The notes under the pieces were generated by a model. The model worked only from the letters and a program-made list of their open reading frames with translations, had not been told where the DNA came from and did not search any database. From Bacteroidota bacterium (GTDB taxonomy: Bacteria; Bacteroidota; Bacteroidia; Bacteroidales; JAGNHN01): a stretch of DNA of 64,000 nt. The stretch lies in contig JAKLHK010000005.1 in NCBI GenBank assembly GCA_022710185.1, forward strand, positions 65,682 through 129,681, in the 5' to 3' direction. Numbering within the stretch: position 1 is the first letter of the stretch; each line of letters opens with the position of its first letter. This document shows positions 12,728 to 38,740 of the stretch, piece after piece. A program made the position numbers and the translations under genes.

Positions 12728-12731
12728 TTCC

Positions 12732-21138: not shown

Positions 21139-22215
21139 TCATCCATCCCCCCTCCTTCGCTTGAAATCCTTCTTGTAGTAATCCTTGATCACCTTCCCCA
21201 TGAGTTTTTCCCGCCTCTTCTTCTCGCCGGCCTCGGTCTCGAAGTGGGCACGCTCCCTTTCCAGCCGGAGGTAGTTGTCCCAGGCGTCCGCGTCGATCTC
21301 CCCCTGCTCCAGGGCGTGCAGCACGGCACAGCCGTTCTCCCGGGTGTGGGTGCAATCGGCATAACGGCATTGCCGGGCCAGGTCGAGGATGCGGTCGAAG
21401 GTGGCTTCCAGCCCCCCGCCCCCATCGGTAATGCCTACCTCCCGCATGCCGGGGTTATCAATGATCAGCCCGCCCCCCTTCAGCAGCACAAGCTCCCGGT
21501 GGGTGGTGGTATGTCTCCCCTTGTTCGTGCTTTCGCTCAGGGTCCGTGTGTGCATGTACTCTCCCCCAGCCAGATGGTTGAGCAGGGTTGACTTCCCTGC
21601 ACCGGAAGAGCCCAGCAGGCAATAGGTCTTGCCGGCCTCTATCCTCTGCCTCAGCTCCTCCAAACCTTCTCCGCTCACCGCGCTCATCACCAGGAAGGGC
21701 ACCTCCGGATGGCGCTGCTGCAGCCGCTCCCGCACCTCATGGCAGTGGTTCTCCCCGCACAGGTCAGCTTTGGTGAGCACTATCACCGGGCTCACCCGGG
21801 CGGCATAGCACAGGGTGAGGTAGCGATCCAGACGGTTCAGGTTGAAATCGCGGTCCAGGGCCTGCACCAGGAAGGCATAATCGATGTTGGCCGCGATGAG
21901 TTGTACTTCCCCGTGCTGTCCCACGGCCTGGCGGGTAAGCGCAGCGGTCCGCGGAAGGACCTTATGGATCAGGGCCTGCTCCTCCCCCGCAGCGATCAAG
22001 GCCACCCAATCGCCCACGGCAGGAAAATCCTCCCGGTTGCGGGCACTGAACCTCAGGTTCCCCGTTACCTCCGCCTGCACCTCCCCCCCATCGGTCATCA
22101 CGATATAGCGTTCCTTGTGCTCGGCAGTCACCCTCCCCACACCAAAACCCATCAACCCCTGCTCCCGCCGGTAGTGCTCCAGGTCTTCAGTATAACCCCA
22201 TTCGATGATATTCAT
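21139..22215 (-). CDS. rsgA: Ribosome small subunit-dependent GTPase A (RsgA/YjeQ)
   Basis: Circularly permuted GTPase (TKADL ... GSSGAGKSTLLN) with the zinc knuckle CRYADCTHTRENGCAV. It carries a basic C-terminal tail. Confidence 0.9.
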   Translation of the reverse strand: MNIIEWGYTEDLEHYRREQGLMGFGVGRVTAEHKERYIVMTDGGEVQAEVTGNLRFSARNREDFPAVGDWVALIAAGEEQALIHKVLPRTAALTRQAVGQHGEVQLIAANIDYAFLVQALDRDFNLNRLDRYLTLCYAARVSPVIVLTKADLCGENHCHEVRERLQQRHPEVPFLVMSAVSGEGLEELRQRIEAGKTYCLLGSSGAGKSTLLNHLAGGEYMHTRTLSESTNKGRHTTTHRELVLLKGGGLIIDNPGMREVGITDGGGGLEATFDRILDLARQCRYADCTHTRENGCAVLHALEQGEIDADAWDNYLRLERERAHFETEAGEKKRREKLMGKVIKDYYKKDFKRRRGDG

Positions 22216-22288
22216 GACATTAAAATATAATGTCCCCCAGGCAGCGCCTGACCGGCATCAGGCCTCTCCCCAAATCAACCAGCAGAAA

Positions 22289-25594
<3,306 letters not shown>

Positions 25595-25704
25595 GGGTCT
25601 GTTATTTTCTTGCCCGGCTTGGTTCCGGGTGCCGGGGATACCTGCAATAATCGTTCTATTTCTTCCCCCTGCCATAATGGCAAGAAGGAGTGCAAAGGTA
25701 CGAA

Positions 25705-25740
25705 TACTAAAAAGAGCGGTTTTTACCGCTCTTTTTAGTA
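25705..25740 (-). terminator. Hairpin terminator overlapping the stop of the DUF2795 gene
   Basis: Perfect 16-nt inverted repeat tactaaaaagagcggt / accgctctttttagta with a tttt loop. On the minus strand the stem ends in a U-run. It lies between the DUF2795 stop and the secA start. Confidence 0.55.
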
Positions 25741-26053: not shown

Positions 26054-27646
26054 TTGTATACCATGCCTTTGCCGAAGGACTCCCTGCTCCCCCCCCGCCT
26101 CAGCCGGGCCGCACTGGCCGCCATCCTGGTACTTTGCCTGCTGCTGTATGTCCGGGTGGCCGGTTTTGGGCTGCTCAACTGGGACGATCAGGTGTACATC
26201 ACCCATAACCCCCATGTCAATGGCAACGCGCCAGCCGGCGAGGCCCTGGTCACCAGCTTCGAGGGGCATTACCATCCCCTGGTGCTGTGGTCCCTGCGCT
26301 TCGACCACTTCCTTGGCGGGGGCTCGCCCGTGGTCTTCCACCTGCACAACCTCTTGCTCCACCTGCTGAATGTGCTGCTGGTATTTCTGCTGTTCCGGCG
26401 GCTGGAAGGCGGGGAGCGGGCCGCCTTATGGGTCAGCCTGGTGTTCGCCGTCCACCCCCTGCAGGTGGAGGCGGTAGCCTGGGCCACGGCCCGCAAGGAC
26501 GTGCTGTACGCCCTGTGGTTCCTGCTGGCGCTGGGGTGCTGGCTGCGGTATGCGGAGGATGGGAGGCGACGGTGGTACGCCCTGAGCCTGGCGGCCTTCC
26601 TGCTGGCCCTGCTCTCCAAGGGACAGGCCCTGGTGCTGGCGGCTTTGTTGCCGGTCCTCGACCATTTCCTCGGGGGGAAGGCCCTGCTGAGGGCGCACCG
26701 CCGGGCTTACCTGCCCTTCCTGGGGCTGGCCCTGGGGTTTGCCTATCTTGCCGTATGGGCCCAGCAGCAGAGCGGGTACACCAGCGCCGAGAGTTTCTCC
26801 ACGCCCTGGCACTGGCTGTTGGGCAATGCCGGCTACGCCCTGCTAAGTTATATGCTGCGCATCCTCGTCCCCCTGGGCCTCTCCGCCTACTATCCTTACC
26901 CTGTGCCCGGCCACGACCTCCCGGTCTGGCTGTTCTGGGCTGCGCTTCCCCTGGCCGTGGGGATCGCAGGGGGCAGTACCCGGTTATGGTGGAAGCGCCG
27001 GGCGGTAGGGCTGGGACTGCTCCTTTTCCTTATCTGTCTGGCGCCCATGCTGCGCCTGCTGCCGGTGTCCAACTTCATCACCGCCGACCGTTACACCTAT
27101 GTCGCCCTCCCCGGGGCCATCTGGGCGCTTTACCACGTCCTGCGGCGGCTGGGCCAGGCCCGGAGGGAGGGCCTGCTGGCTGCCCTGGCGCTATTTTTTA
27201 TAGTGCTGACGGCCCTGCGCCTGCCGGTCTGGGGGGATAGCCTCGCCCTGCTGAACGACACCCTGCGGAAGCACCCTGAAGTGGTGCCGGCCTTGAATGC
27301 CCGGGGCGATGTGTTGCTGGAGCAGGGGGACCTTGTGCCGGCCGTGGCGGACTTCAGCGCGGCCATCCGGTTGCGGCCCGGGGAGGCGCGGGCCTATGCC
27401 AACCGCGGCCGTGCCCTGGCGATGGCCGGGGAGATGGACAAGGCCCTCCAGGACCTCGACACGGCCATCCTGCTGGACCCAGGACACCCGGGTATCCGCC
27501 TGAACCGCGCCCTGGCCCTGGCGCGCCTGGGACGCACCCGCGAAGCCCTCCAGGAACTCGACCTCATCCTCTCCCTGGACCCTGGCCACCGCCCCGCCCA
27601 ATTGCTGCGGCAGGAGGTGCAGCAGGCGATGCGTCCGGCGAATTAA
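26054..27646 (+). CDS. Polytopic membrane protein with C-terminal TPR repeats (TMTC/PMT_2-like glycosyltransferase family)
   Basis: 530 aa. The N-terminal two thirds are multi-TM (LLNWDDQVYITHNPHV motif) and the C-terminal about 120 aa are TPR-like (ARAYANRGRALAMAGEMDKALQDLDTAILLDP). Confidence 0.7.
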   Translation: MYTMPLPKDSLLPPRLSRAALAAILVLCLLLYVRVAGFGLLNWDDQVYITHNPHVNGNAPAGEALVTSFEGHYHPLVLWSLRFDHFLGGGSPVVFHLHNLLLHLLNVLLVFLLFRRLEGGERAALWVSLVFAVHPLQVEAVAWATARKDVLYALWFLLALGCWLRYAEDGRRRWYALSLAAFLLALLSKGQALVLAALLPVLDHFLGGKALLRAHRRAYLPFLGLALGFAYLAVWAQQQSGYTSAESFSTPWHWLLGNAGYALLSYMLRILVPLGLSAYYPYPVPGHDLPVWLFWAALPLAVGIAGGSTRLWWKRRAVGLGLLLFLICLAPMLRLLPVSNFITADRYTYVALPGAIWALYHVLRRLGQARREGLLAALALFFIVLTALRLPVWGDSLALLNDTLRKHPEVVPALNARGDVLLEQGDLVPAVADFSAAIRLRPGEARAYANRGRALAMAGEMDKALQDLDTAILLDPGHPGIRLNRALALARLGRTREALQELDLILSLDPGHRPAQLLRQEVQQAMRPAN

Positions 27647-27959
27647 AGTGACTAATTTTGAACGGGTTAGAAGCACATCAATGGCCTGGTCTTAAACTGC
27701 CGTTGTTCCTTGTCCCTTGCACAATATCCCCATCCTTCTGAAATCTGAGATCGTAAATTCCGCCAGCAGGCGGACAATCCTTTTTCGATATTCCATAATT
27801 CACCACAGATTACACAGATTTTCACAGAGGTACCAGTGCCTGAAGTTGATAGTACTTGGAGTTAGGAGTTAAGAGTACCTGGAGTGCTGTACGCTGTCCG
27901 CTTCGCGTTTTTCCGCTATTCGCCTATTTTCATTATCATAAAATATACGCCAAAATCGT

Positions 27960-27992
27960 GGCGGCTATTTCCAGATAATGCAAATAGCCGCC
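27960..27992. other. Perfect 11-bp stem hairpin in the left flank of the island
   Basis: ggcggctattt (27960-27970) pairs with aaatagccgcc (27982-27992) across an 11-nt loop, followed by an A-run on the plus strand. Function unknown. Confidence 0.5.
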
Positions 27993-28305
27993 AAAAATTC
28001 CAGCCACACCCAGCAGAGGGCACGTTGCTCAGTTACTCGCCGGACAGCCAGCCCTTGGCCGGGATTGCGCAAGTGTCTGATTATGTGAAACAAGGAATTT
28101 CCCTTGCATATCACAGCGACCATGTGACTAAAAATCTAACCCAAGGTACCCATAGTCCAAATATTCTCAATATCTTTAGGTCTGTGACTTAGGCTCTTGA
28201 TTATCAGACAATGAACACCGTCCGCTAAATGCGAAATATCCGCCATAGGTTCTGATAGCGAAATGTTATGCCCAATGCTGAAAAACAACCTAACGACAAC
28301 ATAAA

Positions 28306-29760
28306 ATGAAGAAATTTGACCTAAACATTGAGAAAATTCTTGAAAACTGGGAAACATTTCATGCTATCCGAGAACTAATTGCAAATGCACTTGATGAACA
28401 ACTTATTACTAATACAAAGGAGGTTGAAATATTCAAAGTAGGTAATACTTGGAAAATCAGAGACTTTGGACGGGGATTAAAATATACTCATTTGACACAA
28501 AATGAAAACCAAGAAAAACTTTCAAATCCTCATGTTATAGGGAAATTTGGAATTGGACTAAAAGATGCTTTAGCAACTTTCGACAGAAAAGGTATAAAAG
28601 TAATTGCAAAATCAAAACACAGTAAAATAACAATCGCAAAATCTGAAAAAGAAGGGTTCAAAGATTTATTGACTCTTCATGCAATTATTGAAGCCCCACA
28701 AGACCCAAACTTTATTGGGACCGAGTTTGAACTTGTTGGGATAAATGATAATGACATTAACGAGGCAAAAAAATTATTTCTAAAGTTTTCAGGTGAGAGA
28801 ACAATGGAAATTACAAAACAAGGTCAAGTAGTTAGAAAAAACAGCACGTTTGGCAACATTTATATCAATGGAGTAAAAGTTGCGGAAGAAGAAAATTTTC
28901 TCTTCAGCTACAATATTACTGTATTAAATGCTTCAATAAAAAAAGCTCTTAACAGAGAAAGAACAAATGTCGGGAGAAGTGCATATTCAGAATCAGTAAA
29001 AAAAATATTATTGTCTTGCCAATCTAAGGAGGTTGCTGAAACATTGGCTAAAGATTTGACAAATATAAATAGAGGAACTGCACACGACGAGTTAACCTGG
29101 CTTGATGTTCAGGAACACTCTGTTAAAATATTAAATCAACAGGGCAAATTTCTTTTTATAACTTCGTTTGAAGCAATGCAACATCCAGACATGATAGACC
29201 AAGCTAGAAATAGTGGTCATGAAATCATAACAATCCCTGAAAATTTAAAGTATAAAATTCAAGGCTCAACCGACTTTAACGGTAGCCCTATTGTGGATAT
29301 TGGGCAATTCGTTGAAAACTACAATAACAGTTTCAATTTTAACTTTATAGACCCAAATAAATTAAGTCAAAAGGAAAAAGCCATTTATGACCAAACTCCA
29401 AAAATCATTGAACTATTTGGTGGTAAACCATATAAAGTAAAGTCAATAAAAATTTCATCTACAATGAGAAAAGACTTTTTTGGTGAAGTTGAAACACTTG
29501 GTTGCTGGGATGATAATACAAACTCAATAGTTATTTCACGTAAAGTATTAAATAACATTACAGACTTTTCAGGAACTTTGATACATGAGCTCGTTCATGC
29601 TGATACTGGACATGATGATGTAACTAGGGATTTTGAAACATCACTGACAACAATAATTGGACGACTATCTTCAACAATTCTTGGACAAAAAGTTTCCTTA
29701 ATTAGCAATTCAAATTCTAAAAAGAATTCTTCTTGGCTTCAAAAATTTTTTGGAGAGTAA
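28306..29760 (+). CDS. GHKL (Bergerat-fold, MORC/Hsp90-like) ATPase fused to a C-terminal HExxH zincin-like motif
   Basis: 484 aa. N-box ELIANALDE (aa 23-31), G1 box DFGRGL (53-58), G2 box GKFGIGLK (79-86), and IHELVHADTGHDD (HExxH at aa 427-431, nt 29584-29598). Confidence 0.75.
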   Translation: MKKFDLNIEKILENWETFHAIRELIANALDEQLITNTKEVEIFKVGNTWKIRDFGRGLKYTHLTQNENQEKLSNPHVIGKFGIGLKDALATFDRKGIKVIAKSKHSKITIAKSEKEGFKDLLTLHAIIEAPQDPNFIGTEFELVGINDNDINEAKKLFLKFSGERTMEITKQGQVVRKNSTFGNIYINGVKVAEEENFLFSYNITVLNASIKKALNRERTNVGRSAYSESVKKILLSCQSKEVAETLAKDLTNINRGTAHDELTWLDVQEHSVKILNQQGKFLFITSFEAMQHPDMIDQARNSGHEIITIPENLKYKIQGSTDFNGSPIVDIGQFVENYNNSFNFNFIDPNKLSQKEKAIYDQTPKIIELFGGKPYKVKSIKISSTMRKDFFGEVETLGCWDDNTNSIVISRKVLNNITDFSGTLIHELVHADTGHDDVTRDFETSLTTIIGRLSSTILGQKVSLISNSNSKKNSSWLQKFFGE

Positions 29761-30102
29761 TGACAAGTGACAATAAGAAAAATGAATAAAAGCACAGGGC
29801 ATAACAATGTACATATTGCAGGGCGGGGTTTGGAGGTATGCCAACTGCGGATTCTCGCATCGCAGTTCCGTGTCCTTCGGACAGGAACGCTCTCCGAAAT
29901 CCGCCCCGACAACATGTACCAACCGTTACCGCCAAGTGTAAGAGACAGACAACGACATAGAAAAACTGAAAAGTAAACCATTGTGAAAGGACAGAAAAAA
30001 GAAATATTGACTAGACCAGAGACCCGACACTCGAGCCGACCCGATGTTTTTTATTTTTTGCCCACCGCACATTTTTTAAAACAATTGCCGACCCACATTG
30101 CA

Positions 30103-30155
30103 CACATTGCCAAAGCCCCACAAGCCAACGCTACAACCAAAGCTTTGTCAAAGAG
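30103..30155. repeat. 53-bp direct repeat, copy 1 (upstream of the 1668-aa gene)
   Basis: cacattgccaaagccccacAagccaacGctacaaccaaagctttgtcaaagag matches 36982-37034 at 51 of 53 positions. Confidence 0.9.
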
Positions 30156-30191
30156 TGCAATTTTGCCGACACACTAAAAAAGAATATCACT

Positions 30192-33100
30192 ATGCTTTAT
30201 ATAAAAGACCTTTCCTTTTTCAGACAGTATTATAAATCGCAAGAAGCTTTAAATTTTGATAGGTCGATAGATACTTCATTTATTAACACTTTTCACCCTG
30301 AAAAACCAACGAATAAAACTAAAGGTTTTTCTTATTTGGTATATGGTGCAAGAGGTAATATCGGAGGATTTTTAAGGAGTGCTTCATTAAATGTCGCTGC
30401 TGACCAACAAGCGATTTATGAACTTATTCAAAATGCTGACGATTGCGAGGCAAATCTTTTCAGTGTTTTCTACAACAGGGAATATCTATTGTGTATCAAC
30501 AATGGTACTCCATTCTCAAAAAGGAATATGTCAGCAATATTAAATGTTGGCGATTCAGACAAAGATGCAGAAGATATTGGAACATTTGGGATAGGTTTTA
30601 AAATTATTCACCGACTCTTGGGTGAGGATGATGGATTGAAAGCGATATTGAATGATTATGCCGGGCCAATTATATACAGTTGGAATCAGTACAATCATTT
30701 AAAAAGATTACTAAGTGATGATGAAATTGTAATTAATAAAAACGGTTCAAGAGATGATGATTGTCCCTGGTTATTGAAAATAATTTATACCTGTTTTCCA
30801 ACGCATTTAGGTGAAAGTATAAAAAATGAAAAATATTCTGATGAAACATTATTTACAATTGAGGAATTCAATGAATTCAAACTTTTTCTTAAAAATTCAT
30901 TAGCAAAACTTAATACGTTTACGGAAAACAATCTTCGACAAGGTTCAATATTTTTCCTAAGAATTGGTGCAGATAAGTTCAAATACATTGATGAGAATAT
31001 AGATAACATTTTTAATGGAATTGGTTATTCATTCAATTTCCTAAATCATTTGAAGCGAATTTATATTAATGAAAAAGAGATAAATAAAGAGAAAATCACC
31101 TTAGAAAAATTTGAATATCCTATTGGTAGCGATCAATACAACTTAATTAGACCAAGAAATGAAGAACGGAATATTGACTTTTCTTTTTCATATTATAAAA
31201 ACTACAAAACCGCATTAAAACTAAAGGATGTACCAAATATTTATAACTTCTTCTCAATGGAGGAAGAAAAAAATGGTTGGTGTTTCTTATTGCATTGCAA
31301 TTCTTTTGATATGCATAATGATAGAAGAAAACTTCAACCAAATTCAAATATAAATGAACGACTTTTACCCAGTATTGCTAACGAAATCAAACAATTTTTA
31401 GTAGACCTTTCCGACACAAATACTGATTCATTTATCAATATTTATCCATCGTTATTAATAAGTGATATTCCAGAAAGTAAACAACATCTTAAAGATTATT
31501 TTTTCGATATTTTGACTACCATTTTATCGGAGAGAATACCGACAGATAATGGGTTTTCTGATAATTCACAGGATGTGGTAATTAAAAAAACAAAACTACC
31601 AATATCACCAAGAGATTGGGGAGTAGAAAAAGATTGGTTTTATTGGACGGATTTTAAAGAGGATGAGGTAATAATCAAAGAAGCCCAAAAAGAAGAAAAA
31701 ATTGGCCTAGAAAAAGTGTCAATTTCATCATTGATTGAAAATGGAGACATTGATACAATCAATGAATGGATTTTTAATGCGAATGAAAAGGATTTTACTC
31801 TCTTTCTAAATGAGTTAGAAAAGGATATTCCTGATGAAAATTTCCTTGATTTGCAATTTTTAAAATGCTCCGATACTTATTACTATTCAATCAATGAAAT
31901 TGCTTCAAATTCTAATGTTTTGTGCCTTTTTGAAAAGATTCACGAAATAAAGGATATTCTAAACGAATTAGAGTTAATTACAACGGAAATAAATATTTCT
32001 GATTTCAAGAACATCGCAGAAAAAGCTAGTAAAAAACTTCCGTATCTTAAAACTATTGGTGAAAAAAAGGTTTTTGATGATTTTATCAAAGATGCAACAA
32101 CTGAAAATAATTTAACTCCAAAAAGTAAAAAAAGATTATTCGTTGCAATAAAAGAACTTTATAATGTTGGGGACAAATCATTAAAGGAATGGGAATTGTT
32201 TTCCAATAATGAAATGGAAATATGCTCCTTAAACACATTAATAAGCCCTTCAATCAAGGTTGAGAAATGGCTTATCAAATATCAAATCATTAAAAGTGAA
32301 TTCTTTGAAGAACTTGAGGAGTATTTGTTGCAAGCAGATGACATTTACCCATCAATTATTTATCCACTTTGGGACGAGTTAATAGAAGTCGATGAAATTG
32401 ATGAAATAACCATAGGTGAATTTTATTCTTCTGTAAAAAACTATTTTGATGAAGAAGCGCATAAATCACTAACATTAAATAAGAAGGCGTACATTTTTAC
32501 TTCTGAAGGGTTCTTTCCAACATCTGAGGTTTTCTATAATGAAGTTTTTAACTCCATTATGGATTACCCATCCTTAAAAAGCTCAATAGAAAAAGTTACT
32601 GGATTTAAGACACCATCAAAAAAAGTTTTAAAGTACTTAACTGAAAGTCCTTTTAAAACAGATAATGACAAATTATTGGACCATCTTTCTGATTGTTCCA
32701 TAGAGCAGTCAGAAGCTTATGAATTGCTGAGATATTGTCAAAAAGCAGATGTTAAACTTTTTTCGAAAGGAGTTTTTTGTGAATCTGGTAATGATATTGA
32801 CTGGGAATGCAATGATTCAAAAATACAGTACTTTTCAGAAGATTCAAGATTAATTGAATTTATCAATGAATATTTAGAAGATACTTTTTATCTTCTACCA
32901 TCAGCTTTACAGGACTTCAAATTTTTTGAAGGTATCAGACGAAATCAAGAACTTTATGAAGAAATAATTGAGCAACTTGATAATATAAATGATTTGGCGG
33001 CTGAGTTCTTGCCATTATTGAAACATAAAGAAGTTATTAAATCATATATATCAAATTTACCTGATATAAGGATTGAAAACAGAATTTCATTTGATAAAAG

Positions 33101-35198
33101 TAGTTTTGAACATATTGTGGTTTCAAATATCATCTCACATTTTGAAGACGAAGAACTTGAAGAAATAAAGGAGAGAATTATAATTTGCGATGATGATACT
33201 GAATTTAAATTAGAAGAAATAGTTACTGGTAACGAGGTTCAATTTGACATCGATAATAAGTTATACAATATCAAAGTTTCGGAAATATTGCCTGACTCTG
33301 ACAATTTTTCCAAAGCTGAAATACTTGACGTTATTATTGCAAATTTCAAAAAACTTGAACTGTCCAAAACCAAAATTGATAAATTACTCTCTGTCGAGAT
33401 TGAAGAGGACGACCTTGCTGAAAAACTTGCCGAGGAATTACTTGGGTCACTTGAAGATAATATCCTTGAAACTGCTGAACAGATTGCTTTTTGTCTTTTA
33501 TATGAATTACAGGCAGGGTGGTCTAAATTTGATGATTTTCAGATTTACGCTTCGAACAATGAAACATATAAACTAAATGAGGTATGGTATGCCAAACCAT
33601 TTTCATTTCTAAGTGAAACAGGTGCAATTGGGGAACAATATAAAGGGCTTTCAAAGTTGCTCAAGATTAAAGATGAAAACCCAATTTTTAAAGTCAGTGA
33701 TAGTTGTATTTTTCTTTATAAACCTGCTTTTGATGAAGATGGTAGATTTGTTTGCAATTATATTGATGAGAAATTAGACGATGACAATAGTATTGCGTTA
33801 CTCGATTTTTTGTTTGAAGAATATAATAAACGAGGAAAGGAAAGCAGACGTGACTTTGAGGAAATTGATGATTGGTCAAAACTTGGAGACACTGAAACAG
33901 AAAAAATAATAGGCATCAATCCGCATAATACAATCTTTATCGAAAACGATAAATTTATGTTGTCTGATGAAGTCGTACCGGAGTGGATTCAGGATTGGGC
34001 AAAAGATGAAGCAAAAATTTCATTCTTAAAAGTATTGGGAATTCATTTCAATGATTCGGATATTGTTAAGCTAAGGGAATCTCTTTATGATGAAGATGGC
34101 TCTATAACAAAGAATGACATAAATGGAAGTAACTCCTTAAATGCATTTTTATTGGAGAACACTTTAAAATGGCTTGTAGAATCAGAGATATGGGAAGATA
34201 AGGTAATTGATGAACCTGTAAAAGTTGAACTTCTTGATGCGATTATTGAAAAATTAGGTTGGGATTTAGAGGATTATTGGTCTGTTGACATTGAAGAACT
34301 AAATGAAAACAGCGAGGAATGGGTAGATGAGGGTTATTCAAATTGGCGTGAAGAAGAGGATTCATTTGAAATAAGAATGTATAATGATCAAATGCCTTAT
34401 ATCTTACAATATGAAAATAATATTCTTGCTGAGAAAAATCAAGATGAATACTGGTATGATGATGAAAATCAAATATTTTATACAAACAAAAATAAATCCA
34501 CCCATTTATTGCTTCAAAATGCTGCTGAAGAAGAGTTGTTTGATTTAGACACAATAAAACCACTAATCCAACAAGGTCTGGTAAAAGTTAAAGATTATGT
34601 AGATCGCATAGAGCAACTTGAAGCAGAATTACAGCAATTTAGACAACCTAAAGGAGATATTACTAGAGGTACTGCTGATTCAGAAACAATGGGTGCAGTT
34701 CTTGATGAAACTCTAAATATGGTTAGAGAAGAACTAGAACAAGACGAGAATTATAATTGCACACATTGGGACAATTCACGATTTCCAAAGACTTTGGTTC
34801 AAGGGGTATTATATAAAGAGATTCCGATAAAGCTGATCGTTCGCAGTTGTCAAAGAGGTAGACTCCATCTAATCCCTAAAGAATGGCTATTACTATCAGA
34901 ACCTAATACTTTTTTAGTGCTACGGTTATCAAAACACAAAATTGAAGTAATCCCAGAACCACTTAAGGAGCTTGCCGAATCAAACAACCTATTTAATATG
35001 AATTTTGATTTGGAAAGATTAACCACAAATGGGGTCACAGCTTTAAGCAAGGCAATTGAAAGTTCAAATATTAAATATGTTGGTGTTGGTTTCGTAATAG
35101 ATGCACCAAGATATTCCAGAAGTATTGAACTTAATGAAATCGGATTATACGTTACAAATCAGGGTGATATTTCATCTGCAAATGACAATGAGTTTTAA
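30192..35198 (+). CDS. Giant sacsin/NO VEIN-like GHKL ATPase domain protein with a possible NOV_C (DUF3883)-like C-terminal module
   Basis: 1668 aa. YELIQNADD (aa 76-84), INNGTPF (102-108) and GTFGIGFK (130-137) reproduce the sacsin SRR pattern (ELIQNAxDA ... NN..F ... GrFGIGF). About 1300 aa of acidic/lysine-rich sequence has no motif I recognise. Residues about 1500-1590 resemble NOV_C. Confidence 0.7.
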   Translation: MLYIKDLSFFRQYYKSQEALNFDRSIDTSFINTFHPEKPTNKTKGFSYLVYGARGNIGGFLRSASLNVAADQQAIYELIQNADDCEANLFSVFYNREYLLCINNGTPFSKRNMSAILNVGDSDKDAEDIGTFGIGFKIIHRLLGEDDGLKAILNDYAGPIIYSWNQYNHLKRLLSDDEIVINKNGSRDDDCPWLLKIIYTCFPTHLGESIKNEKYSDETLFTIEEFNEFKLFLKNSLAKLNTFTENNLRQGSIFFLRIGADKFKYIDENIDNIFNGIGYSFNFLNHLKRIYINEKEINKEKITLEKFEYPIGSDQYNLIRPRNEERNIDFSFSYYKNYKTALKLKDVPNIYNFFSMEEEKNGWCFLLHCNSFDMHNDRRKLQPNSNINERLLPSIANEIKQFLVDLSDTNTDSFINIYPSLLISDIPESKQHLKDYFFDILTTILSERIPTDNGFSDNSQDVVIKKTKLPISPRDWGVEKDWFYWTDFKEDEVIIKEAQKEEKIGLEKVSISSLIENGDIDTINEWIFNANEKDFTLFLNELEKDIPDENFLDLQFLKCSDTYYYSINEIASNSNVLCLFEKIHEIKDILNELELITTEINISDFKNIAEKASKKLPYLKTIGEKKVFDDFIKDATTENNLTPKSKKRLFVAIKELYNVGDKSLKEWELFSNNEMEICSLNTLISPSIKVEKWLIKYQIIKSEFFEELEEYLLQADDIYPSIIYPLWDELIEVDEIDEITIGEFYSSVKNYFDEEAHKSLTLNKKAYIFTSEGFFPTSEVFYNEVFNSIMDYPSLKSSIEKVTGFKTPSKKVLKYLTESPFKTDNDKLLDHLSDCSIEQSEAYELLRYCQKADVKLFSKGVFCESGNDIDWECNDSKIQYFSEDSRLIEFINEYLEDTFYLLPSALQDFKFFEGIRRNQELYEEIIEQLDNINDLAAEFLPLLKHKEVIKSYISNLPDIRIENRISFDKSSFEHIVVSNIISHFEDEELEEIKERIIICDDDTEFKLEEIVTGNEVQFDIDNKLYNIKVSEILPDSDNFSKAEILDVIIANFKKLELSKTKIDKLLSVEIEEDDLAEKLAEELLGSLEDNILETAEQIAFCLLYELQAGWSKFDDFQIYASNNETYKLNEVWYAKPFSFLSETGAIGEQYKGLSKLLKIKDENPIFKVSDSCIFLYKPAFDEDGRFVCNYIDEKLDDDNSIALLDFLFEEYNKRGKESRRDFEEIDDWSKLGDTETEKIIGINPHNTIFIENDKFMLSDEVVPEWIQDWAKDEAKISFLKVLGIHFNDSDIVKLRESLYDEDGSITKNDINGSNSLNAFLLENTLKWLVESEIWEDKVIDEPVKVELLDAIIEKLGWDLEDYWSVDIEELNENSEEWVDEGYSNWREEEDSFEIRMYNDQMPYILQYENNILAEKNQDEYWYDDENQIFYTNKNKSTHLLLQNAAEEELFDLDTIKPLIQQGLVKVKDYVDRIEQLEAELQQFRQPKGDITRGTADSETMGAVLDETLNMVREELEQDENYNCTHWDNSRFPKTLVQGVLYKEIPIKLIVRSCQRGRLHLIPKEWLLLSEPNTFLVLRLSKHKIEVIPEPLKELAESNNLFNMNFDLERLTTNGVTALSKAIESSNIKYVGVGFVIDAPRYSRSIELNEIGLYVTNQGDISSANDNEF

Positions 35199-36968
35199 AT
35201 GCAATTAGACCGAACTGAACATATTAAACTGTTAGACCTTGAGTTAAAAACTCAATCAGACAATTATTTAAAACTGGTTTTACAGAAAGCAACTGCCCTT
35301 ATTGAACAAGAGGAGGTCTTCACAAGTCAGTTTGTGAAATTTGAAGATGGAATACTTGTATTAAAATTAAAAACAGAAAAAGCACTTCCTCGCAAAGGTC
35401 AATACTTATCAGCAGTTTTACTAAATGATGAAAAAAGAAGTTATAAAAACTGGGGTGATTTGTCTTGGGCTGAATTGAGAAACAAATATCAAAATAGTTT
35501 TTCTGAATGTGTTTGTGTTTGGCATAAGTCATATGATGAGAAAAGATTTCAGCTAGCAGGCTTTAAAGGTATTTCACTTGATTTTGCTGGGAAATTGGTT
35601 GACAAGTGTTTAGTTACCCTTGGTCCGCACGAACCACCTTTGAAATATTTGCAAAATTTAATCGAGATAGTTACAAATACTCCAAAAGATCTACCCTCTG
35701 CAAGATTCCTTGATATTCATTTAGCTAATAATGAGTGGATTCCTACGATACTTGATGAGAAACGTAACTTATCTGATTTTATTCAAACGCAACTTTCTAT
35801 TTCTGATGAAATTATTATTCAAGGACCTCCAGGAACAGGGAAGACTTATCAAATGGCAAAATTAATTGCTGACTTATTAGATAAAAACAAAAGTGTCCTT
35901 GCTACTTCATTAACCAATCGTTCGTTAATAGAATTGGCTTCAAAGAAGTTTTTGGAAAATCATCGTAAAAGTGAAAAGATTTACAAAACAAATCTTACTA
36001 AAGACGAACAAGAAGAATTGCCAGGGTTATTAAACTCAAAGGATATTCAGGTAATATCAGGTACAGTATTGCTTTCAACATTTTATATCTCAAGTGGCTT
36101 TGCAAAAGAAATACAAGATGAACCACCGTTTGATTTTGTTATTGTTGATGAAGCAAGTCAGGCTTTATTATCAATGTTTTGTGCTGCAAAGAAACTAGGG
36201 AAGAAAGTTGTTTTTATTGGAGACCCGTATCAATTACCACCGGTTGTTGAAGTCAATAAGGATATAATTGAAAAGAAAAATGCTATAAGTTTTGTTGAAG
36301 GATTCAATACTATCTGTAGAAATTTATCAATTCCATCATTTCAACTAACAGAAACCTACAGGCTGCCAACAAGAGCTACCCAATATACTGGTCTATTTTA
36401 CCGTAACACATTAGTTTCAAAGGCAAATAAAAAACTGAGATTCCAATTTCCTGAATGCGGTCTTGAATTTAATAAATATCTAAACCCTGATGGTGGACCT
36501 GTATTGATTAAATCAAGTTTTCCAATTGGTAATGACAACCCTGATTTTGGTCTTTTTTTAATCATAGACTTTTTAAAACAGTTGATGTTTGTTTTGGAAA
36601 AGGATTTCAAGATAGCTTTAATTGCAAAAACTAAAAAGGCAGTAAGAGCAATTCAAAAAGCAATGACAGCAACTTTTGGCAGTGATGATAGGATTTTAAT
36701 TGAAACTGTTGAAAGAATTCAAGGTCTTACTTGTGACTTAACCATTTTTTTCATCCCAAATTCAAGTATGAATTATTCTTTGAAAAAGCCGCTATTTAAT
36801 GTCGCAACAAGTAGAGCAACGAGACACACAATAATTATTGCAGACAAAGCAATTACTACATATCCTATTGCTGACAAACTTGTTAGAGATTTTATTCATA
36901 AATTGAACGATGAATATAGTTTTGAAATTGAACCAAAAATAAATATGAAAAAACTTACAGAAGGTTAA
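35199..36968 (+). CDS. Superfamily 1 helicase, Upf1/DNA2-like (AAA_11/AAA_12 type)
   Basis: 589 aa. Walker A GPPGTGKT (aa 209-216, nt 35823-35846), Walker B VIVDEASQ, GDPYQLPPV, TYRLP, ERIQGLTCD and NVATSRATRH. The ATG directly abuts the TAA of the upstream gene. Confidence 0.85.
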   Translation: MQLDRTEHIKLLDLELKTQSDNYLKLVLQKATALIEQEEVFTSQFVKFEDGILVLKLKTEKALPRKGQYLSAVLLNDEKRSYKNWGDLSWAELRNKYQNSFSECVCVWHKSYDEKRFQLAGFKGISLDFAGKLVDKCLVTLGPHEPPLKYLQNLIEIVTNTPKDLPSARFLDIHLANNEWIPTILDEKRNLSDFIQTQLSISDEIIIQGPPGTGKTYQMAKLIADLLDKNKSVLATSLTNRSLIELASKKFLENHRKSEKIYKTNLTKDEQEELPGLLNSKDIQVISGTVLLSTFYISSGFAKEIQDEPPFDFVIVDEASQALLSMFCAAKKLGKKVVFIGDPYQLPPVVEVNKDIIEKKNAISFVEGFNTICRNLSIPSFQLTETYRLPTRATQYTGLFYRNTLVSKANKKLRFQFPECGLEFNKYLNPDGGPVLIKSSFPIGNDNPDFGLFLIIDFLKQLMFVLEKDFKIALIAKTKKAVRAIQKAMTATFGSDDRILIETVERIQGLTCDLTIFFIPNSSMNYSLKKPLFNVATSRATRHTIIIADKAITTYPIADKLVRDFIHKLNDEYSFEIEPKINMKKLTEG

Positions 36969-36981
36969 CCCGATTTGCAAG

Positions 36982-37034
36982 CACATTGCCAAAGCCCCAC
37001 GAGCCAACACTACAACCAAAGCTTTGTCAAAGAG
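36982..37034. repeat. 53-bp direct repeat, copy 2 (downstream of the helicase gene)
   Basis: It matches 30103-30155 with 2 mismatches and begins 14 nt after the helicase stop codon. Confidence 0.9.
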
Positions 37035-37357
37035 CTTGCAAAGCCAACGCACCGAGAAAAATTGTTTTAAAAAATTTGCCGACACTTAAAAAAATAAAAA
37101 ACGCTGACACACAAGCCGACAGAAAAAAGTAAAATGACAATGACACGAAAACTGAATATTAACAATGGTATACAAGACTGGAAGACAGAACACCAGGCGG
37201 TAACAGGCGGTATATTTTATTGCCGAGACAGTGGGTATTTCAGCGTTTCTGCATCTAATAAACTTTCGTGTAACTTGACAGTGAAGTGCTTCGAAATCGG
37301 CAACAAAAACATACCGCCAATCCGTTAGCAGCCATATCAAAATAGCAGGACTAAACT

Positions 37358-37849
37358 ATGAGAATCTTTTTAATTATTTTATTCTTTTTAGCTTTCACTT
37401 TAGTTAATGCCCAATACAAAATGTTTTCAGGTATTCATGATACAATCAACTTAGATTTGTCGACTTTACTGGAGAATACTGGCTTTGGGAAAGCAACATA
37501 CTATTATGATGATATTGAGAAGAAAGATGGTGTTTGGAACTTCTATCCAATGATTAATTTGTCAAAATCATTAACCGCAGTATGGGTCAGCACAATTCCA
37601 GGCCGAAATAATGGCTATACATTTCTTTTAATTTTTGATATTAATACTCATAAAATCTCGGATACCTTGGGACCATATTATGATTCTAGTATTGATGCTA
37701 TTAAGGGCAGAATAAAGAAGAATAATTTAAATTATTTAAAGGTTCGACTATCAAATCCACCGGAAGTAGAGAATTCAAAATATACTATCAGGGAATATAA
37801 ACGTATTGAGGGTAACCTTAAAGAATATAGAAGTCGTGATAATTATTGA
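37358..37849 (+). CDS. Small secreted hypothetical protein
   Basis: 163 aa, AT-rich codon usage. Signal peptide MRIFLIILFFLAFTLVNA followed by Q at +1. No recognisable catalytic motif. Confidence 0.6.
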   Translation: MRIFLIILFFLAFTLVNAQYKMFSGIHDTINLDLSTLLENTGFGKATYYYDDIEKKDGVWNFYPMINLSKSLTAVWVSTIPGRNNGYTFLLIFDINTHKISDTLGPYYDSSIDAIKGRIKKNNLNYLKVRLSNPPEVENSKYTIREYKRIEGNLKEYRSRDNY

Positions 37850-38179
37850 TACGGCTGCTAATAAGTAAGGCTTCGTGCGGCGATAGCCCAGTCCGCCATC
37901 TGGCGGATTGCACGAAATCCCGCGCCTTATGGGGTTTAAGTATCGAAAGCAGTGATCAGGGAAGAGCGAACGACAAGGTTCTTGGATAAGCTAAAGCAGG
38001 CAGGCTGGTTGAAAGGCCAGTAACCGGGTCTTTTGAAAGGATTTAGGGGCGAAATATCTTTCGGGGACTAATCCCGCGCATCAGCGCGTAAACATTACCG
38101 GACCCGGCAGGCGGCAGGATTTGTCAGGCCTCGCTCAACCTAAGCATTGATTTGGGCAGATGCACCCCGGCCCCTCCCC

Positions 38180-38740
38180 TCAATACTCCGGCGCCCAGGG
38201 GCTTTCCCCGGCATTGGTCTCCTGCCCCAGGAAACGGGCCAGCACGAAGAAGTAGTCGGAAAGACGGTTGAGGTAACGCAGGATCACGGGATCCACCGGG
38301 TGCTCCCGCCCCAGGGTAATGGTAGTGCGCTCGGCCCGGCGGCATACGGTGCGCGCCACATGGGCCAGCGACACCACGGCATGGCCCCCGGGGAGCAAAA
38401 AACGGGTGAGCGGGGGCAAACGGTCGTTCATCCGGTCGATGGCCTGTTCCAGCACCACCACCTCCTCCTCGCGCAGCTGGGGCAGGGCCCGCGGCTTGCC
38501 CCCCGGGTCCACGGCCAGCCACGACTCGGCCGTGAAGATCTGCTCCTGGATCCGGACCAGCTCGGCCCTCACCCCCGCCGCCTCGGGCTGGTCGCGCAAC
38601 AACCCGATGAAGGAGTTCAGCTCGTCCAGGGTGCCGTAAGCCTCAATGCGCAGGTGGTCCTTGGGCACCCGGGTGCCCCCGATCAGGGAGGTCTGGCCTG
38701 CATCGCCCCCCTTGGTGTAAATCTTGAATGGTTCGCTCAT
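38180..38740 (-). CDS. ATP:cob(I)alamin adenosyltransferase, PduO type
   Basis: 186 aa. The N-terminal IYTKGGDAGQTSL and the helical-bundle pattern are typical of the PduO/MMAB family. Confidence 0.88.
   Translation of the reverse strand: MSEPFKIYTKGGDAGQTSLIGGTRVPKDHLRIEAYGTLDELNSFIGLLRDQPEAAGVRAELVRIQEQIFTAESWLAVDPGGKPRALPQLREEEVVVLEQAIDRMNDRLPPLTRFLLPGGHAVVSLAHVARTVCRRAERTTITLGREHPVDPVILRYLNRLSDYFFVLARFLGQETNAGESPWAPEY

Follow-up and report, generated by a model that had tools for sequence, protein, structure and literature searches.

One of the closest described systems to the gene presented here is VcSduA, a validated single-protein defence in which a GHKL ATPase carries a C-terminal nuclease effector (PMC12137116). 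The MORC/paraMORC paper leaves peptidases unmentioned, and CapK, the GHKL protein of the CapK/CapS paper, is of a different, anti-sigma-kinase-like type. SprT and WLM proteases, for their part, are not fused to GHKL ATPases. To our knowledge, the characterised ATP-dependent proteases use AAA+ motors. Zinc proteases do occur in immune settings: SprT-type peptidases recur in restriction-modification (R-M) operons, CapP/CapH is an example of a protease-controlled immune operon, and Lit, the zinc protease of prophage e14, cleaves EF-Tu after activation by a phage capsid peptide and has no ATPase domain.

The window, by which we mean the whole 64-kb stretch of DNA analysed, encodes a 484-aa protein that, judged by its sequence and its structural model, is an Hsp90/MORC-type ATPase module joined to a small zinc protease and represents an uncharacterised family. 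The initial annotation did not recognise this as a standard characterised architecture, and we agree: a PADLOC-DB 2.0 scan of the protein returned no defence family at E<=1 (neither a Shedu nor a TmtA model), a single-sequence search of solved structures returned nothing, with weak matches coming from profile searches only, and a literature search found no paper on the GHKL-zincin architecture, PF25856 or DUF6782. We lean towards reading the gene as a single-gene, ATP-gated protease that serves in conflict or defence, its opponents being phages or other mobile elements.

Domains and conservation of the protein

The open reading frame proposed by the initial annotation is present and intact, and its product divides into an ATPase domain, a middle region and a protease domain. 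In the feature list below, counts of conservation refer to 116 full-length representatives of clusters at 50 % identity, and statements of invariance to a separate alignment of 69 sequences.

28306..29760, + strand: GHKL-middle-zincin gene, complete, 484 aa, ATG start (ORF list and translation)
28306..28920, + strand: GHKL (Bergerat-fold) ATPase domain, aa 1 to ~205 (Pfam, PDB profile, Foldseek)
28372..28395, + strand: Bergerat motif I, E23-x3-N27-x2-D30, invariant in the 69 sequences, kept in 114/116
28462..28476, + strand: Bergerat motif II, D53-F-G55-R-G57, invariant in the 69 sequences, kept in 115-116/116
28540..28557, + strand: Bergerat motif III, G79-K-F-G82-I-G84 (ATP-lid hinge), invariant in the 69 sequences, kept in 115-116/116
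28717..28722, + strand: Bergerat motif IV, G138-T139, invariant in the 69 sequences, kept in 114-115/116
28921..29280, + strand: middle region, aa 206-325, helices and a small alpha/beta unit (secondary structure of the AF2 model)
28954-28956, + strand: R217, kept in 116/116
29281..29715, + strand: minimal zincin domain, aa 326-470 (AF2 model of the domain alone, pLDDT 93.2; Foldseek; sub-threshold Pfam)
29584..29598, + strand: HExxH motif, H427-E428-L-V-H431, invariant in the 69 sequences, intact in 104/116
29617-29619, + strand: D438, invariant in the 69 sequences, kept in 104/116
29635-29637, + strand: E444, invariant in the 69 sequences, kept in 109/116

Three Bergerat boxes had been noted in the N-terminal part of the protein; we find four motifs, all inside residues 1-140, in a domain that opens with the conserved N-terminal strand F4 D5 L6 N7. 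Between 114 and 116 of the 116 representatives retain the GHKL residues. Pfam and NCBIfam match the domain weakly: HATPase_c_3 aligns with aa 18-122 at E=6.5e-4 and scores 20.2 bits, short of its cut-off of 25, a threshold that is passed in homologues of the window protein. In a PDB profile search the GHKL half matched GyrB, Hsp90 and TRAP1, with GyrB and Hsp90 at E of about 6e-4. The full-length AF2 model is confident (pLDDT 92.1, pTM 0.80) and has the Bergerat alpha/beta sandwich; Foldseek aligned it with Hsp90, TRAP1, GRP94, MORC4 and topoisomerase IV/VI structures in the PDB at E values from 1e-11 to 1e-4. The four motifs and the modelled fold together identify the domain as a member of the GHKL superfamily. 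Within motif I, E23 is the candidate catalytic base and N27 the candidate Mg-binding asparagine.

Pfam has no model that matches the middle region of the window protein, which may be transducer-like. This region holds a conserved loop, N216-R217-E218-R219, in which R217 may act as the gamma-phosphate sensor. The whole model matched the N and M domains of Hsp90 and the ATPase region of MORC4 (GHKL plus transducer), the latter at E=2.5e-5 with a TM-score of only 0.32-0.38, which bears on the question of an S5 fold in this region. The predicted ATPase would bind and hydrolyse ATP and dimerise in a nucleotide-dependent manner. Two independent clusters (P0121 and P0137) are tandem fusions of one GHKL-middle unit with a second GHKL-middle unit that carries the zincin, and they lend indirect support to a dimer as the working unit.

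At the C-terminus, the HExxH signature first placed at nt 29584-29598 maps exactly there. In the AF2 model of the domain, two N-terminal helices lead into a three-stranded sheet, which is followed by the HExxH helix and a further, long helix. H427, E428 and H431 sit on helix 418-434, D438 lies in a loop, and E444 opens the helix that follows the active-site helix, a gluzincin-like arrangement whose helix boundaries come from the model. The family motif spanning the active site reads HExxHAxTGxxDxTRxFExxLT. Histidine and aspartate residues near the HExxH had been put forward as third zinc ligands; the acidic part of that proposal stands, with D438 and E444 both conserved and both candidates, and the adjacent H436 drops out, its position being variable (H/Y/G/A/S/P among others).

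The initial annotation had called the C-terminus metallopeptidase-like, and its model bears this out. All of the best PDB matches of the domain model are minimal gluzincins, namely selecase, projannalysin and proabylysin (probability 0.92-0.99, E 0.03-0.08, 14-22 % identity), and proabylysin superposes with an rmsd of 2.7 A over 89 columns. Named matches in a viral structure library are mostly SprT, IrrE, M48 or XE zincins. By sequence the domain comes nearest to SprT and Wss1: Wss1p is its best PDB profile match (E=0.01-0.03), and SprT-like (PF10263) scores 17.5 bits with the full protein and 20.2 bits with the domain alone, both short of the gathering threshold of 25.6 bits. When 56 diverse C-terminal domains of the family were scanned with Pfam, the families matched were zincin peptidases apart from two single matches, and SprT-like was the commonest (22 of the 56, all sub-threshold, best E 5.5e-5). 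On model and alignment, then, the domain has a zincin fold with an HExxH conserved in the family; it appears SprT/Wss1-like in sequence and minigluzincin-like in fold, and falls below every curated family threshold. The predicted protease would act by zinc-dependent proteolysis.

The family is large. Homologues form at least 4,788 clusters at 90 % identity, spread over many bacterial phyla and Archaea, and 1,784 clusters at 50 % identity, 335 of which align over the whole length with E<1e-30. A chance motif in a chance open reading frame is ruled out by these thousands of homologous clusters together with the full-length alignments and the conserved residues. Homologues from distant bacterial phyla and from Archaea share 50-80 % identity. 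Among the matches listed, all 120 of 120 homologues have a precomputed PF25856.2 (MPN635_N) match, including P0001, which is 96 % identical to the window protein. Our own Pfam scan of the window protein at E<=1 came back without PF25856, a model that may be absent from the Pfam copy scanned; through its near-identical homologues the window protein probably belongs to this family as well. MPN635 of Mycoplasma pneumoniae has been reported solely as non-essential.

The HExxH is lost in 12 of the 116 full-length clusters (~10 %) and every GHKL residue is retained there, which excludes proteolysis as the output in those lineages at least. Some homologues carry an additional N-terminal TerD domain, and others have TPR, Sel1, LRR, FGE-sulfatase or Bles03 domains added at the C-terminus. 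Cluster P0192 has, in place of the protease, an N6-methylase of the Eco57I type together with a TaqI_C specificity domain. These fusions and the P0192 swap suggest the modularity that is typical of conflict systems.

Genomic context and mobility

In the window the gene lies in a low-GC island of ~10 kb, beside a TmtA gene and a helicase gene.

27650..38050, no strand: low-GC island carrying the gene, 31-36 % GC against ~60 % GC for the genome (composition profiles)
30192-35198, + strand: TmtA (Tiamat), 1668 aa, PADLOC TmtA PDLC03970, 1146 bits
35199-36968, + strand: SF1 helicase (AAA_11/AAA_12)

A tRNA search of the window found none, an Rfam scan of the island found no structured RNAs, and no integrase-sized ORF was apparent, judging by size, in the island's ORF list. 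Promoter and terminator scans of 27600-30300 were uninformative. We considered whether the gene travels as a mobile cassette with conserved ends and rejected this: DNA similarity to relatives runs from the start codon to a point within the gene, with no conservation of the flanks. As no flank is conserved, a 16-nt inverted repeat around the ORF is probably due to chance.

A functional link to the adjacent TmtA was also rejected, as no TmtA occurs among the neighbour ORFs in the 80-plus other loci. The helicase has one weak partial match in other loci (L065, 30 % identity over 96 aa). We therefore treat TmtA, the helicase and the island as context and not as functional partners of the GHKL-zincin gene.

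More generally, clustering of the ORFs within 6 kb of the gene at ~84 loci revealed no conserved partner, the largest cluster spanning 6 loci. Three neighbours that look alike in size (~250 aa) turned out to be unrelated. The GC content of the gene averages 6.9 points below that of its flanks, and the family is a solitary gene that moves horizontally, also between Bacteria and Archaea, with a tendency to end up in defence islands, R-M operons, plasmids and other mobile DNA. Most copies are chromosomal. The gene is carried by 13 of 72,556 plasmid records, with three copies on conjugative plasmids, and some copies adjoin transposases or ICE-like polyvalent proteins. Distant homologues are present in the viral structure library. 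Phages as the main habitat were rejected on the basis of a single distant match (a Moorella phage) in 50,697 phage records.

Defence-type genes are frequent among the neighbours, as judged by a qualitative survey without matched control genes. On the Salinibacter plasmid pSR56 the gene is part of a type I R-M operon, with hsdS on one side and hsdR on the other, and the same operon encodes a separate SprT-family peptidase. At other loci it adjoins HEPN_AbiU2, lies beside ParE and VapBC toxin-antitoxin pairs, or is found between an AAA_13 ATPase and DUF2130. Strong PADLOC matches among the 148 nearest neighbour ORFs include Gabija, viperin, SoFic, PDC-S06, HEC-05 and type IIG and type III R-M systems, and Pfam adds matches to GmrSD. 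RmuC, SbcCD-like and CoiA proteins are also found nearby, and at many loci the neighbours are ordinary housekeeping genes. A linkage to R-M is seen in some cases (pSR56, the type IIG and type III neighbours, the P0192 fusion) and is not conserved across the ~84 loci.

Possible functions

Under the defence reading, the protein would act as a homodimer. On binding ATP, its paired GHKL domains would clamp shut around a trigger (DNA or a foreign protein), and the middle region would relay clamp closure to the protease domain. The protease would thereby be activated or delivered to its substrate, and the target protein would be cut. Such a protein would make a stand-alone conflict or defence module aimed at phages or other mobile elements. 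The solitary, mobile habit of the gene, its defence-type neighbours, the modularity of the family and the precedent of VcSduA all support the defence reading. Against it stand the blank PADLOC result, the housekeeping neighbours at many loci and the 12 of 116 clusters without HExxH. A further observation against this reading is that the family is more strongly conserved than is usual for defence genes.

We see a small chance that the protein is the first GHKL-powered protease, which would form a class of ATP-dependent protease of its own next to the AAA+ proteases, and that its dimeric clamp closes on incoming nucleic acid while its SprT/Wss1-like domain destroys the proteins bound or covalently attached to it. 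The targets would then be conjugative relaxases, phage or viral terminal proteins, or stalled restriction complexes. If this nucleic-acid clamp exists, Bacteria and Archaea would share a single-gene immunity keyed to a feature of the invader and not to its sequence, and it would become clear why the family is so unusually conserved in both.

One explanation outside defence, unlikely in our view and yet the rival that we take most seriously, is the removal of proteins stuck on or crosslinked to DNA. The GHKL part would clamp DNA as topoisomerases, MutL or MORC do, and the SprT/Wss1-like protease would digest the obstacle, whether a host crosslink (a repair role), a stalled restriction enzyme or a trapped topoisomerase. 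SprT-like proteins and Wss1p, which come nearest to the protease in sequence, are indeed DNA-dependent crosslink proteases, and the GHKL part resembles DNA-clamping ATPases; its best structural match, however, is Hsp90, which clamps proteins and not DNA, and no DNA-binding domain was identified in the protein. The type I R-M operon with its own SprT-family peptidase, the joining of GHKL and middle region to a DNA methylase with its specificity domain in P0192, and the presence of RmuC, SbcCD-like and CoiA neighbours all fit work on DNA, but a sporadic, horizontally moved and island-borne distribution is unlike that of housekeeping repair, and the C-terminal TPR, LRR, Sel1 and FGE-sulfatase fusions suit the sensing of ligands or proteins rather than repair. 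Alternatively the protein may serve the mobile elements themselves, as an ArdC-like counter-defence or establishment factor that destroys host restriction or immune proteins on entry to a new cell. Copies on plasmids, three of them conjugative, and near transposases and ICE-like polyvalent proteins would agree with this, as would the distant homologues in the Moorella phage and the viral structure library and the sub-threshold matches of 5 of the 56 C-terminal domains to MPTase-PolyVal, an ArdC-like zincin. We rate its chances as slim, given how rare the gene is in phages (1 of 50,697) and plasmids (13 of 72,556), the chromosomal location of most copies and the presence of the gene within host-side R-M operons and defence islands.

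The resemblance to Hsp90 raises another alternative, a quality-control or stress chaperone-protease in which an Hsp90-like clamp holds misfolded clients and the fused zincin degrades them. Full-length Hsp90, TRAP1 and GRP94 are the top structural matches of the N-terminal and middle parts, the conservation across Bacteria and Archaea would suit a generic substrate, and TerD, the N-terminal addition of some homologues, is a stress-associated domain. This possibility appears slimmer still, since this is a patchily distributed accessory gene found in islands of foreign GC, the neighbours are not stress regulons, and the protein has neither the C-terminal dimerisation domain of Hsp90 nor an HSP90 Pfam match. 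We regard as very improbable an ImmA/IrrE-type regulatory protease that, once triggered by a signal, would cleave a repressor and turn on adjacent genes such as TmtA. There are precedents for protease-controlled immune operons, and IrrE-like proteins are among the weak fold and sequence matches, with Peptidase_M78 (ImmA/IrrE) matched weakly by 3 of the 56 C-terminal domains against 22 for SprT-like. The lack of any conserved neighbour, an HTH repressor included, across the ~84 loci strongly disfavours this explanation, and the TmtA adjacency is unique to the window.

Should the defence reading be correct, the gene would be an unrecognised single-gene conflict or defence module and, given its thousands of sequence clusters across Archaea and many bacterial phyla, a comparatively widespread one. 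A protease driven by a GHKL ATPase would also be the first of its kind. The GHKL-zincin family may in addition help to explain why SprT-type peptidases are found in R-M operons, a suggestion that comes partly from the pSR56 locus.

Comparison with known systems

Two comparisons follow from phage defence. Tiamat (TmtA), located in the same low-GC island, starts like the window protein with a GHKL-like ATP-binding region, of the sacsin type, and a pairwise comparison of the two proteins found no significant similarity. Lit has in common with the proposed function an HExxH protease as the output of phage defence.

On the ATPase side, the window protein shares with Hsp90, MORC and type II topoisomerases the Bergerat fold with its four motifs and, after it, a domain from which a basic residue would reach the nucleotide. 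In whole-model comparisons the E values are low (1e-11 for Hsp90, 2.5e-5 for MORC4), yet identity is 12-15 % and TM-scores are 0.2-0.4. Membership of the Hsp90 family goes with N, M and C-terminal domains and the HSP90 Pfam signature, and here the similarity is limited to an N+M-like part. The C-terminal domain of Hsp90, the CW domain and coiled coil of MORC and the Toprim domain are all absent, and the C-terminus is instead a predicted protease.

On the protease side, the SprT-like/WLM proteases (Wss1, Spartan) likewise carry HExxH on a helix that follows a small sheet of three strands. In Wss1 the motif is HExxHx5H, with the third-ligand histidine shortly after the HExxH. At this Wss1 position, which directly precedes the aspartate, the window protein has a histidine that the GHKL-zincin family does not conserve; D438 and E444 are conserved instead, and the SprT zinc ribbon, SHP and ubiquitin-binding parts are missing from the window protein. 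The minigluzincins (selecase, projannalysin and proabylysin; M48/M56-like) share its minimal size of ~110-140 aa and have a metal-ligand helix after the active-site helix, where the window protein has the candidate ligand E444. They are stand-alone archaeal or bacterial proteins, whereas the GHKL-zincin protease is the C-terminal module of an ATPase.

In overall design, the window protein resembles VcSduA and the paraMORC3-type Shedu (type I-D). Each is one polypeptide with N-terminal GHKL motifs I-IV, a clamp-like middle and a C-terminal effector, and VcSduA is likewise encoded in accessory islands, its ATPase being proposed to control the effector (PMC12137116). Sequence kinship between VcSduA and the window protein is apparent at the level of the GHKL superfamily, and the effectors differ in kind: that of Shedu type I-D is a DUF4263 PD-(D/E)xK nuclease, while the window protein has a zincin in its place.

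The gene and its predicted domains

The open reading frame at 28306-29760 (+) encodes 484 residues, in agreement with the initial annotation. The Bergerat boxes claimed for its N-terminus are readable as four motifs (E23-x3-N27-x2-D30, D53-F-G-R-G57, G79-K-F-G-I-G84 and G138-T139), and H427-E-L-V-H431 maps exactly to nt 29584-29598, where the HExxH had been placed. Single-sequence searches returned weak matches to HATPase_c_3 (aa 18-122, E=6.5e-4), SprT-like (aa 380-432, E=3.8e-3) and DUF6782 'putative metallopeptidase' (E=0.03) in Pfam and to a sacsin-type ATP-binding domain in NCBIfam (E=2.4e-4), which point the same way, to a probable GHKL ATPase and metallopeptidase.

The AF2 model of the full protein (69-sequence alignment) has a pLDDT of 92.1 and a pTM of 0.80. 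Foldseek against PDB matched it to Hsp90, Hsc82, TRAP1 and GRP94, either full-length or their N and M domains (E 1e-11 to 1e-6), to the MORC4 ATPase (E 2.5e-5) and to the ATPase regions of topoisomerases IV, VI and II (E 1e-4 to 1e-3), with just 12-16 % identity and modest TM-scores. The model establishes a predicted layout of GHKL plus following domain and not membership in the Hsp90, MORC or topoisomerase family. Compared with PDB sequences, the family profile found GyrB, topoisomerase IV, Hsp90, TRAP1 and endoplasmin at positions 20-110 and Wss1p at positions 345-455 (E=0.01).

Residues 325-470 modelled alone (pLDDT 93.2) form two helices and three strands, then the HExxH helix and, starting just before E444, a long further helix. 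The top PDB matches of this model are minimal gluzincins (selecase 4qhi/4qhf, projannalysin 4jix and proabylysin 4jiu; prob 0.92-0.99, E 0.03-0.08), with an rmsd of 2.7 A over 89 columns for proabylysin, which supports the zincin fold proposed for this region. Among predicted viral structures the best match is a 437-aa viral protein resembling a family member (E=1.8e-5, TM 0.66); lower named matches are mostly SprT-like, IrrE-like, M48 and baculovirus XE, alongside many unnamed or unrelated entries. The profile of the domain likewise has Wss1p as its best PDB sequence match (E=0.026), with weak lower matches to projannalysin, selecase, a fission-yeast WLM protease, Spartan and IrrE. A Pfam scan of 56 diverse C-terminal domains gave SprT-like in 22, DUF6782 in 9, MPTase-PolyVal in 5, M76 in 4, M78 in 3, M48 in 1 and single matches to Peptidase_M85, DUF7645 and Agglutinin_C; the best reach about E 5e-5, and the domain of the window protein scores 20.2 bits, under the curated cut-off. 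On these matches the C-terminal domain is a zincin, nearest SprT/WLM by sequence and resembling a minimal gluzincin scaffold by modelled fold.

Family conservation and architectural variants

In a word-indexed search the window protein had at least 4,788 homologous clusters, defined at 90 % identity. The best 120 of these are 67-96 % identical across 91-100 % of the length and carry labels including Cytophagales, Campylobacterota, Nitrosomonas, Methylomagnum, Methylomicrobium and Nitrospinae; all 120 have a precomputed match to Pfam PF25856 (MPN635_N), and their sources call them only 'ATP-binding protein' or 'hypothetical protein'. HMMER, run exhaustively on representatives of 50 %-identity clusters, detected 1,784 clusters with E<=1e-3, of which 335 reach E<=1e-30; most alignments extend from query residue 1-3 to about 455-460. 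Scanning one genome per species, we found relatives in many bacterial phyla and, at 50-60 % identity, in archaea (Thermoplasmatales, Thermococci, Methanobacteriaceae, Methanosarcinales, Bathyarchaeia, Thorarchaeota and Aenigmatarchaeota).

Columns that do not vary among 69 diverse aligned members are E23, N27, D30, E31, D53, G55, R56, G57, K71, G79, G82, G84, G138 and T139, followed by R217 and G399 and, at the C-terminus, by H427, E428, H431, D438, E444, L447 and a few hydrophobic positions. These members had been chosen largely among HExxH-bearing sequences, and we therefore recounted on all 116 representatives covering more than 90 % of the query.

Residues kept among the 116 full-length representatives
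GHKL residues: 114-116
R217: 116
HExxH: 104
D438: 104
E444: 109

The HExxH is thus well conserved among homologues, within the family motif HExxHAxTGxxDxTRxFExxLT. Neither outcome that the initial annotation would have taken as refuting its proposal, a non-zincin fold lacking a plausible third ligand or a poorly conserved motif, was observed. The nearby His suggested as a ligand candidate, possibly H436, falls away, its position not being conserved across the family. On average, the GHKL domain is 51 % identical to the query, the middle region 37 % and the zincin 34 %. The 12 representatives with a degenerate HExxH (e.g. P0127, P0164, P0182, P0242) keep every GHKL residue and R217; judging by these motifs, such lineages would retain the ATPase and cannot be proteases.

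Two independent clusters, P0121 (823 aa) and P0137 (815 aa), are tandem fusions in which GHKL plus middle region lacking the protease precede a complete GHKL, middle and zincin unit. They may be covalently linked pseudo-dimers, the arrangement to be expected of a protein that works as a GHKL dimer. Other homologues carry C-terminal TPR, Sel1, BspA-type LRR, FGE-sulfatase or Bles03 additions or an N-terminal TerD domain, which we take to be ligand- or protein-sensing modules typical of NTPase-centred conflict systems. In P0192 (770 aa), a putative fusion and possibly an assembly or gene-calling chimera, the zincin gives way to an Eco57I-type N6-adenine methylase and a TaqI_C specificity domain; GHKL and middle share 52 % identity with the window protein across residues 3-292.

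In six Bacteroidota loci (L023, L026, L027, L029, L030 and L032) a helical protein of 166-194 aa is encoded directly upstream, overlapping the gene start by 4 nt in L029 (9420-10004) and L030. It has no Pfam match and is absent from the window; a homologue is fused N-terminally in cluster P0149 (residues 1-167, pairwise E=2e-7). It is likely an accessory subunit in one subclade.

Genomic setting

The gene lies within an island of 31-36 % GC (~27650-38050, ~10 kb) in a contig of about 60 % GC.

Island genes, repeats and borders
26054-27646: PMT_2/TPR gene, left border
28306-29760, plus strand: GHKL-zincin gene
30103-30155 and 36982-37034: 53-nt direct repeat
30159-30184 and 37072-37097: 26-nt direct repeat
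30192-35198: TmtA (Tiamat, 1668 aa; PADLOC PDLC03970, 1146 bits)
35199-36968: SF1 helicase (589 aa, AAA_11/AAA_12)
37358-37849: orphan 163-aa ORF, island end
38180-38740, minus strand: cobalamin adenosyltransferase gene, right border

The helicase start codon abuts the TmtA stop (35198/35199). Tiamat has been described as a single-gene system, and a fixed helicase partner would deserve a check. The 53-nt repeat flanking this pair (30192-36968) is 96 % identical, with none expected by chance; no further copies occur in the window and Rfam gave no match. The bracketing repeats suggest insertion or duplication of TmtA and the helicase together, as one cassette. The window protein has no significant similarity to TmtA. 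The orphan ORF, with an N-terminal hydrophobic signal-peptide-like stretch, has no match in Pfam, PADLOC or PHROG and forms a 90 % cluster by itself; one source calls it a hypothetical protein from a 'Bacteroidales bacterium' MAG. There is no tRNA in the window, and no integrase-sized ORF is apparent in the island ORF list, its small ORFs being judged by size alone. Elsewhere in the window, the ORF at 22205-25738 (+, 1177 aa) was rejected as a gene: it has no family match and is a shadow of SecA, whose gene at 22289-25675 (-) has full SecA domain matches.

Clustering all ORFs up to 6 kb from the gene in about 84 loci revealed no common neighbour, the largest cluster comprising 6 loci. No TmtA match was found among the neighbour ORFs of other loci, and one such ORF (L065) weakly matches the SF1 helicase over 96 aa. 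DNA similarity to relatives begins at the ATG and ends within the gene, and gene GC averages 6.9 points under the flanks. The conserved, transferred unit is the GHKL-zincin gene itself. Occurrences in phages (one distant match) and on plasmids (13 records) are rare.

The neighbours vary. On the Salinibacter ruber plasmid pSR56 (L088, 4949-15681) the homologue is inserted into a type I R-M operon, flanked by hsdS and hsdR; the operon continues with a separate SprT-family zinc peptidase, a second methylase and a GIY-YIG nuclease. It adjoins a HEPN_AbiU2 gene in Flaviaesturariibacter, precedes ParE and VapBC toxin-antitoxin pairs on one metagenomic contig, belongs in Methylomagnum to an element that also encodes an LPD1 polyvalent protein, Arc repressors and a transposase, and adjoins Rpn, IS110, CoiA and SbcCD-like genes on Bacillus and Croceicoccus plasmids. 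Relatives of about 79 % identity have an AAA_13 ATPase (736-785 aa) on one side and a DUF2130 gene on the other in L091 (5618-11651) and L092 (5551-10723), an arrangement that could reflect either a common island or a functional trio. AAA_13 is also near the gene in L001 and possibly, from a homologous 789-aa neighbour, in L042. An Endonuc_Holl gene (~180 aa), whose product is an archaeal Holliday-junction-resolvase-like nuclease, lies about 1 kb downstream in five loci from Bathyarchaeia and Acidobacteria (L041, L043, L052, L058 and L067; in L043 at 12448-12996, minus).

Among the 148 nearest-neighbour ORFs of 75 loci, strong PADLOC matches include Gabija GajA/GajB, viperin, SoFic, PDC-S06, HEC-05 and type IIG and type III R-M, and Pfam matches include GmrSD, RmuC, AAA_15 and Endonuc_Holl besides ordinary housekeeping genes. 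This qualitative survey, made without a matched control, supports a mobilome and defence-island habit, short of proving enrichment.

Possible role and precedents

Strong purifying selection acts on both predicted catalytic sets, and the GHKL, middle and zincin parts nearly always occur together. The most economical reading is an ATP-controlled protease, both activities being predicted. In GHKL enzymes generally, ATP binding dimerises the N-terminal domains. By analogy, ATP would dimerise the GHKL domains of the window protein, with the conserved R217 loop in the middle region as gamma-phosphate sensor, and closure would be relayed to the C-terminal zincin domain.

A role in conflict or defence is our best guess, held with slightly more belief than doubt, on three grounds: the gene is solitary and mobile, its neighbours are often of defence type, and homologues carry sensor-type fusions. 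Against it, conservation is unusually high for a defence gene, the protease motif has been given up in 10 % of lineages, PADLOC has no model for the family (and its scan of the window protein gave no match), and MPN635 is reported as dispensable only. The main rival, which we consider rather improbable, is that the protein removes DNA-bound or crosslinked proteins, as the SprT/Wss1 affinity of the protease domain, the R-M operon context and the methylase fusion (P0192) would favour. A variant overlapping with this rival, with a protein attached to invading DNA as the target, seems to us more doubtful still. We also give less weight to counter-defence, chaperone-protease and ImmA-like regulatory roles.

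A validated precedent for a GHKL ATPase and a C-terminal effector in a single defence protein is VcSduA, in which protection is lost in ATPase and nuclease mutants alike (PMC12137116); its effector is a nuclease, whereas that of the window protein is a predicted protease. The initial annotation did not recognise the architecture as standard or characterised, and our literature search agrees, having found no description of it, while databases hold PF25856 or 'ATP-binding protein' only. An NTPase switch and an effector in one polypeptide is a known design; a GHKL ATPase coupled to a zincin protease is not.
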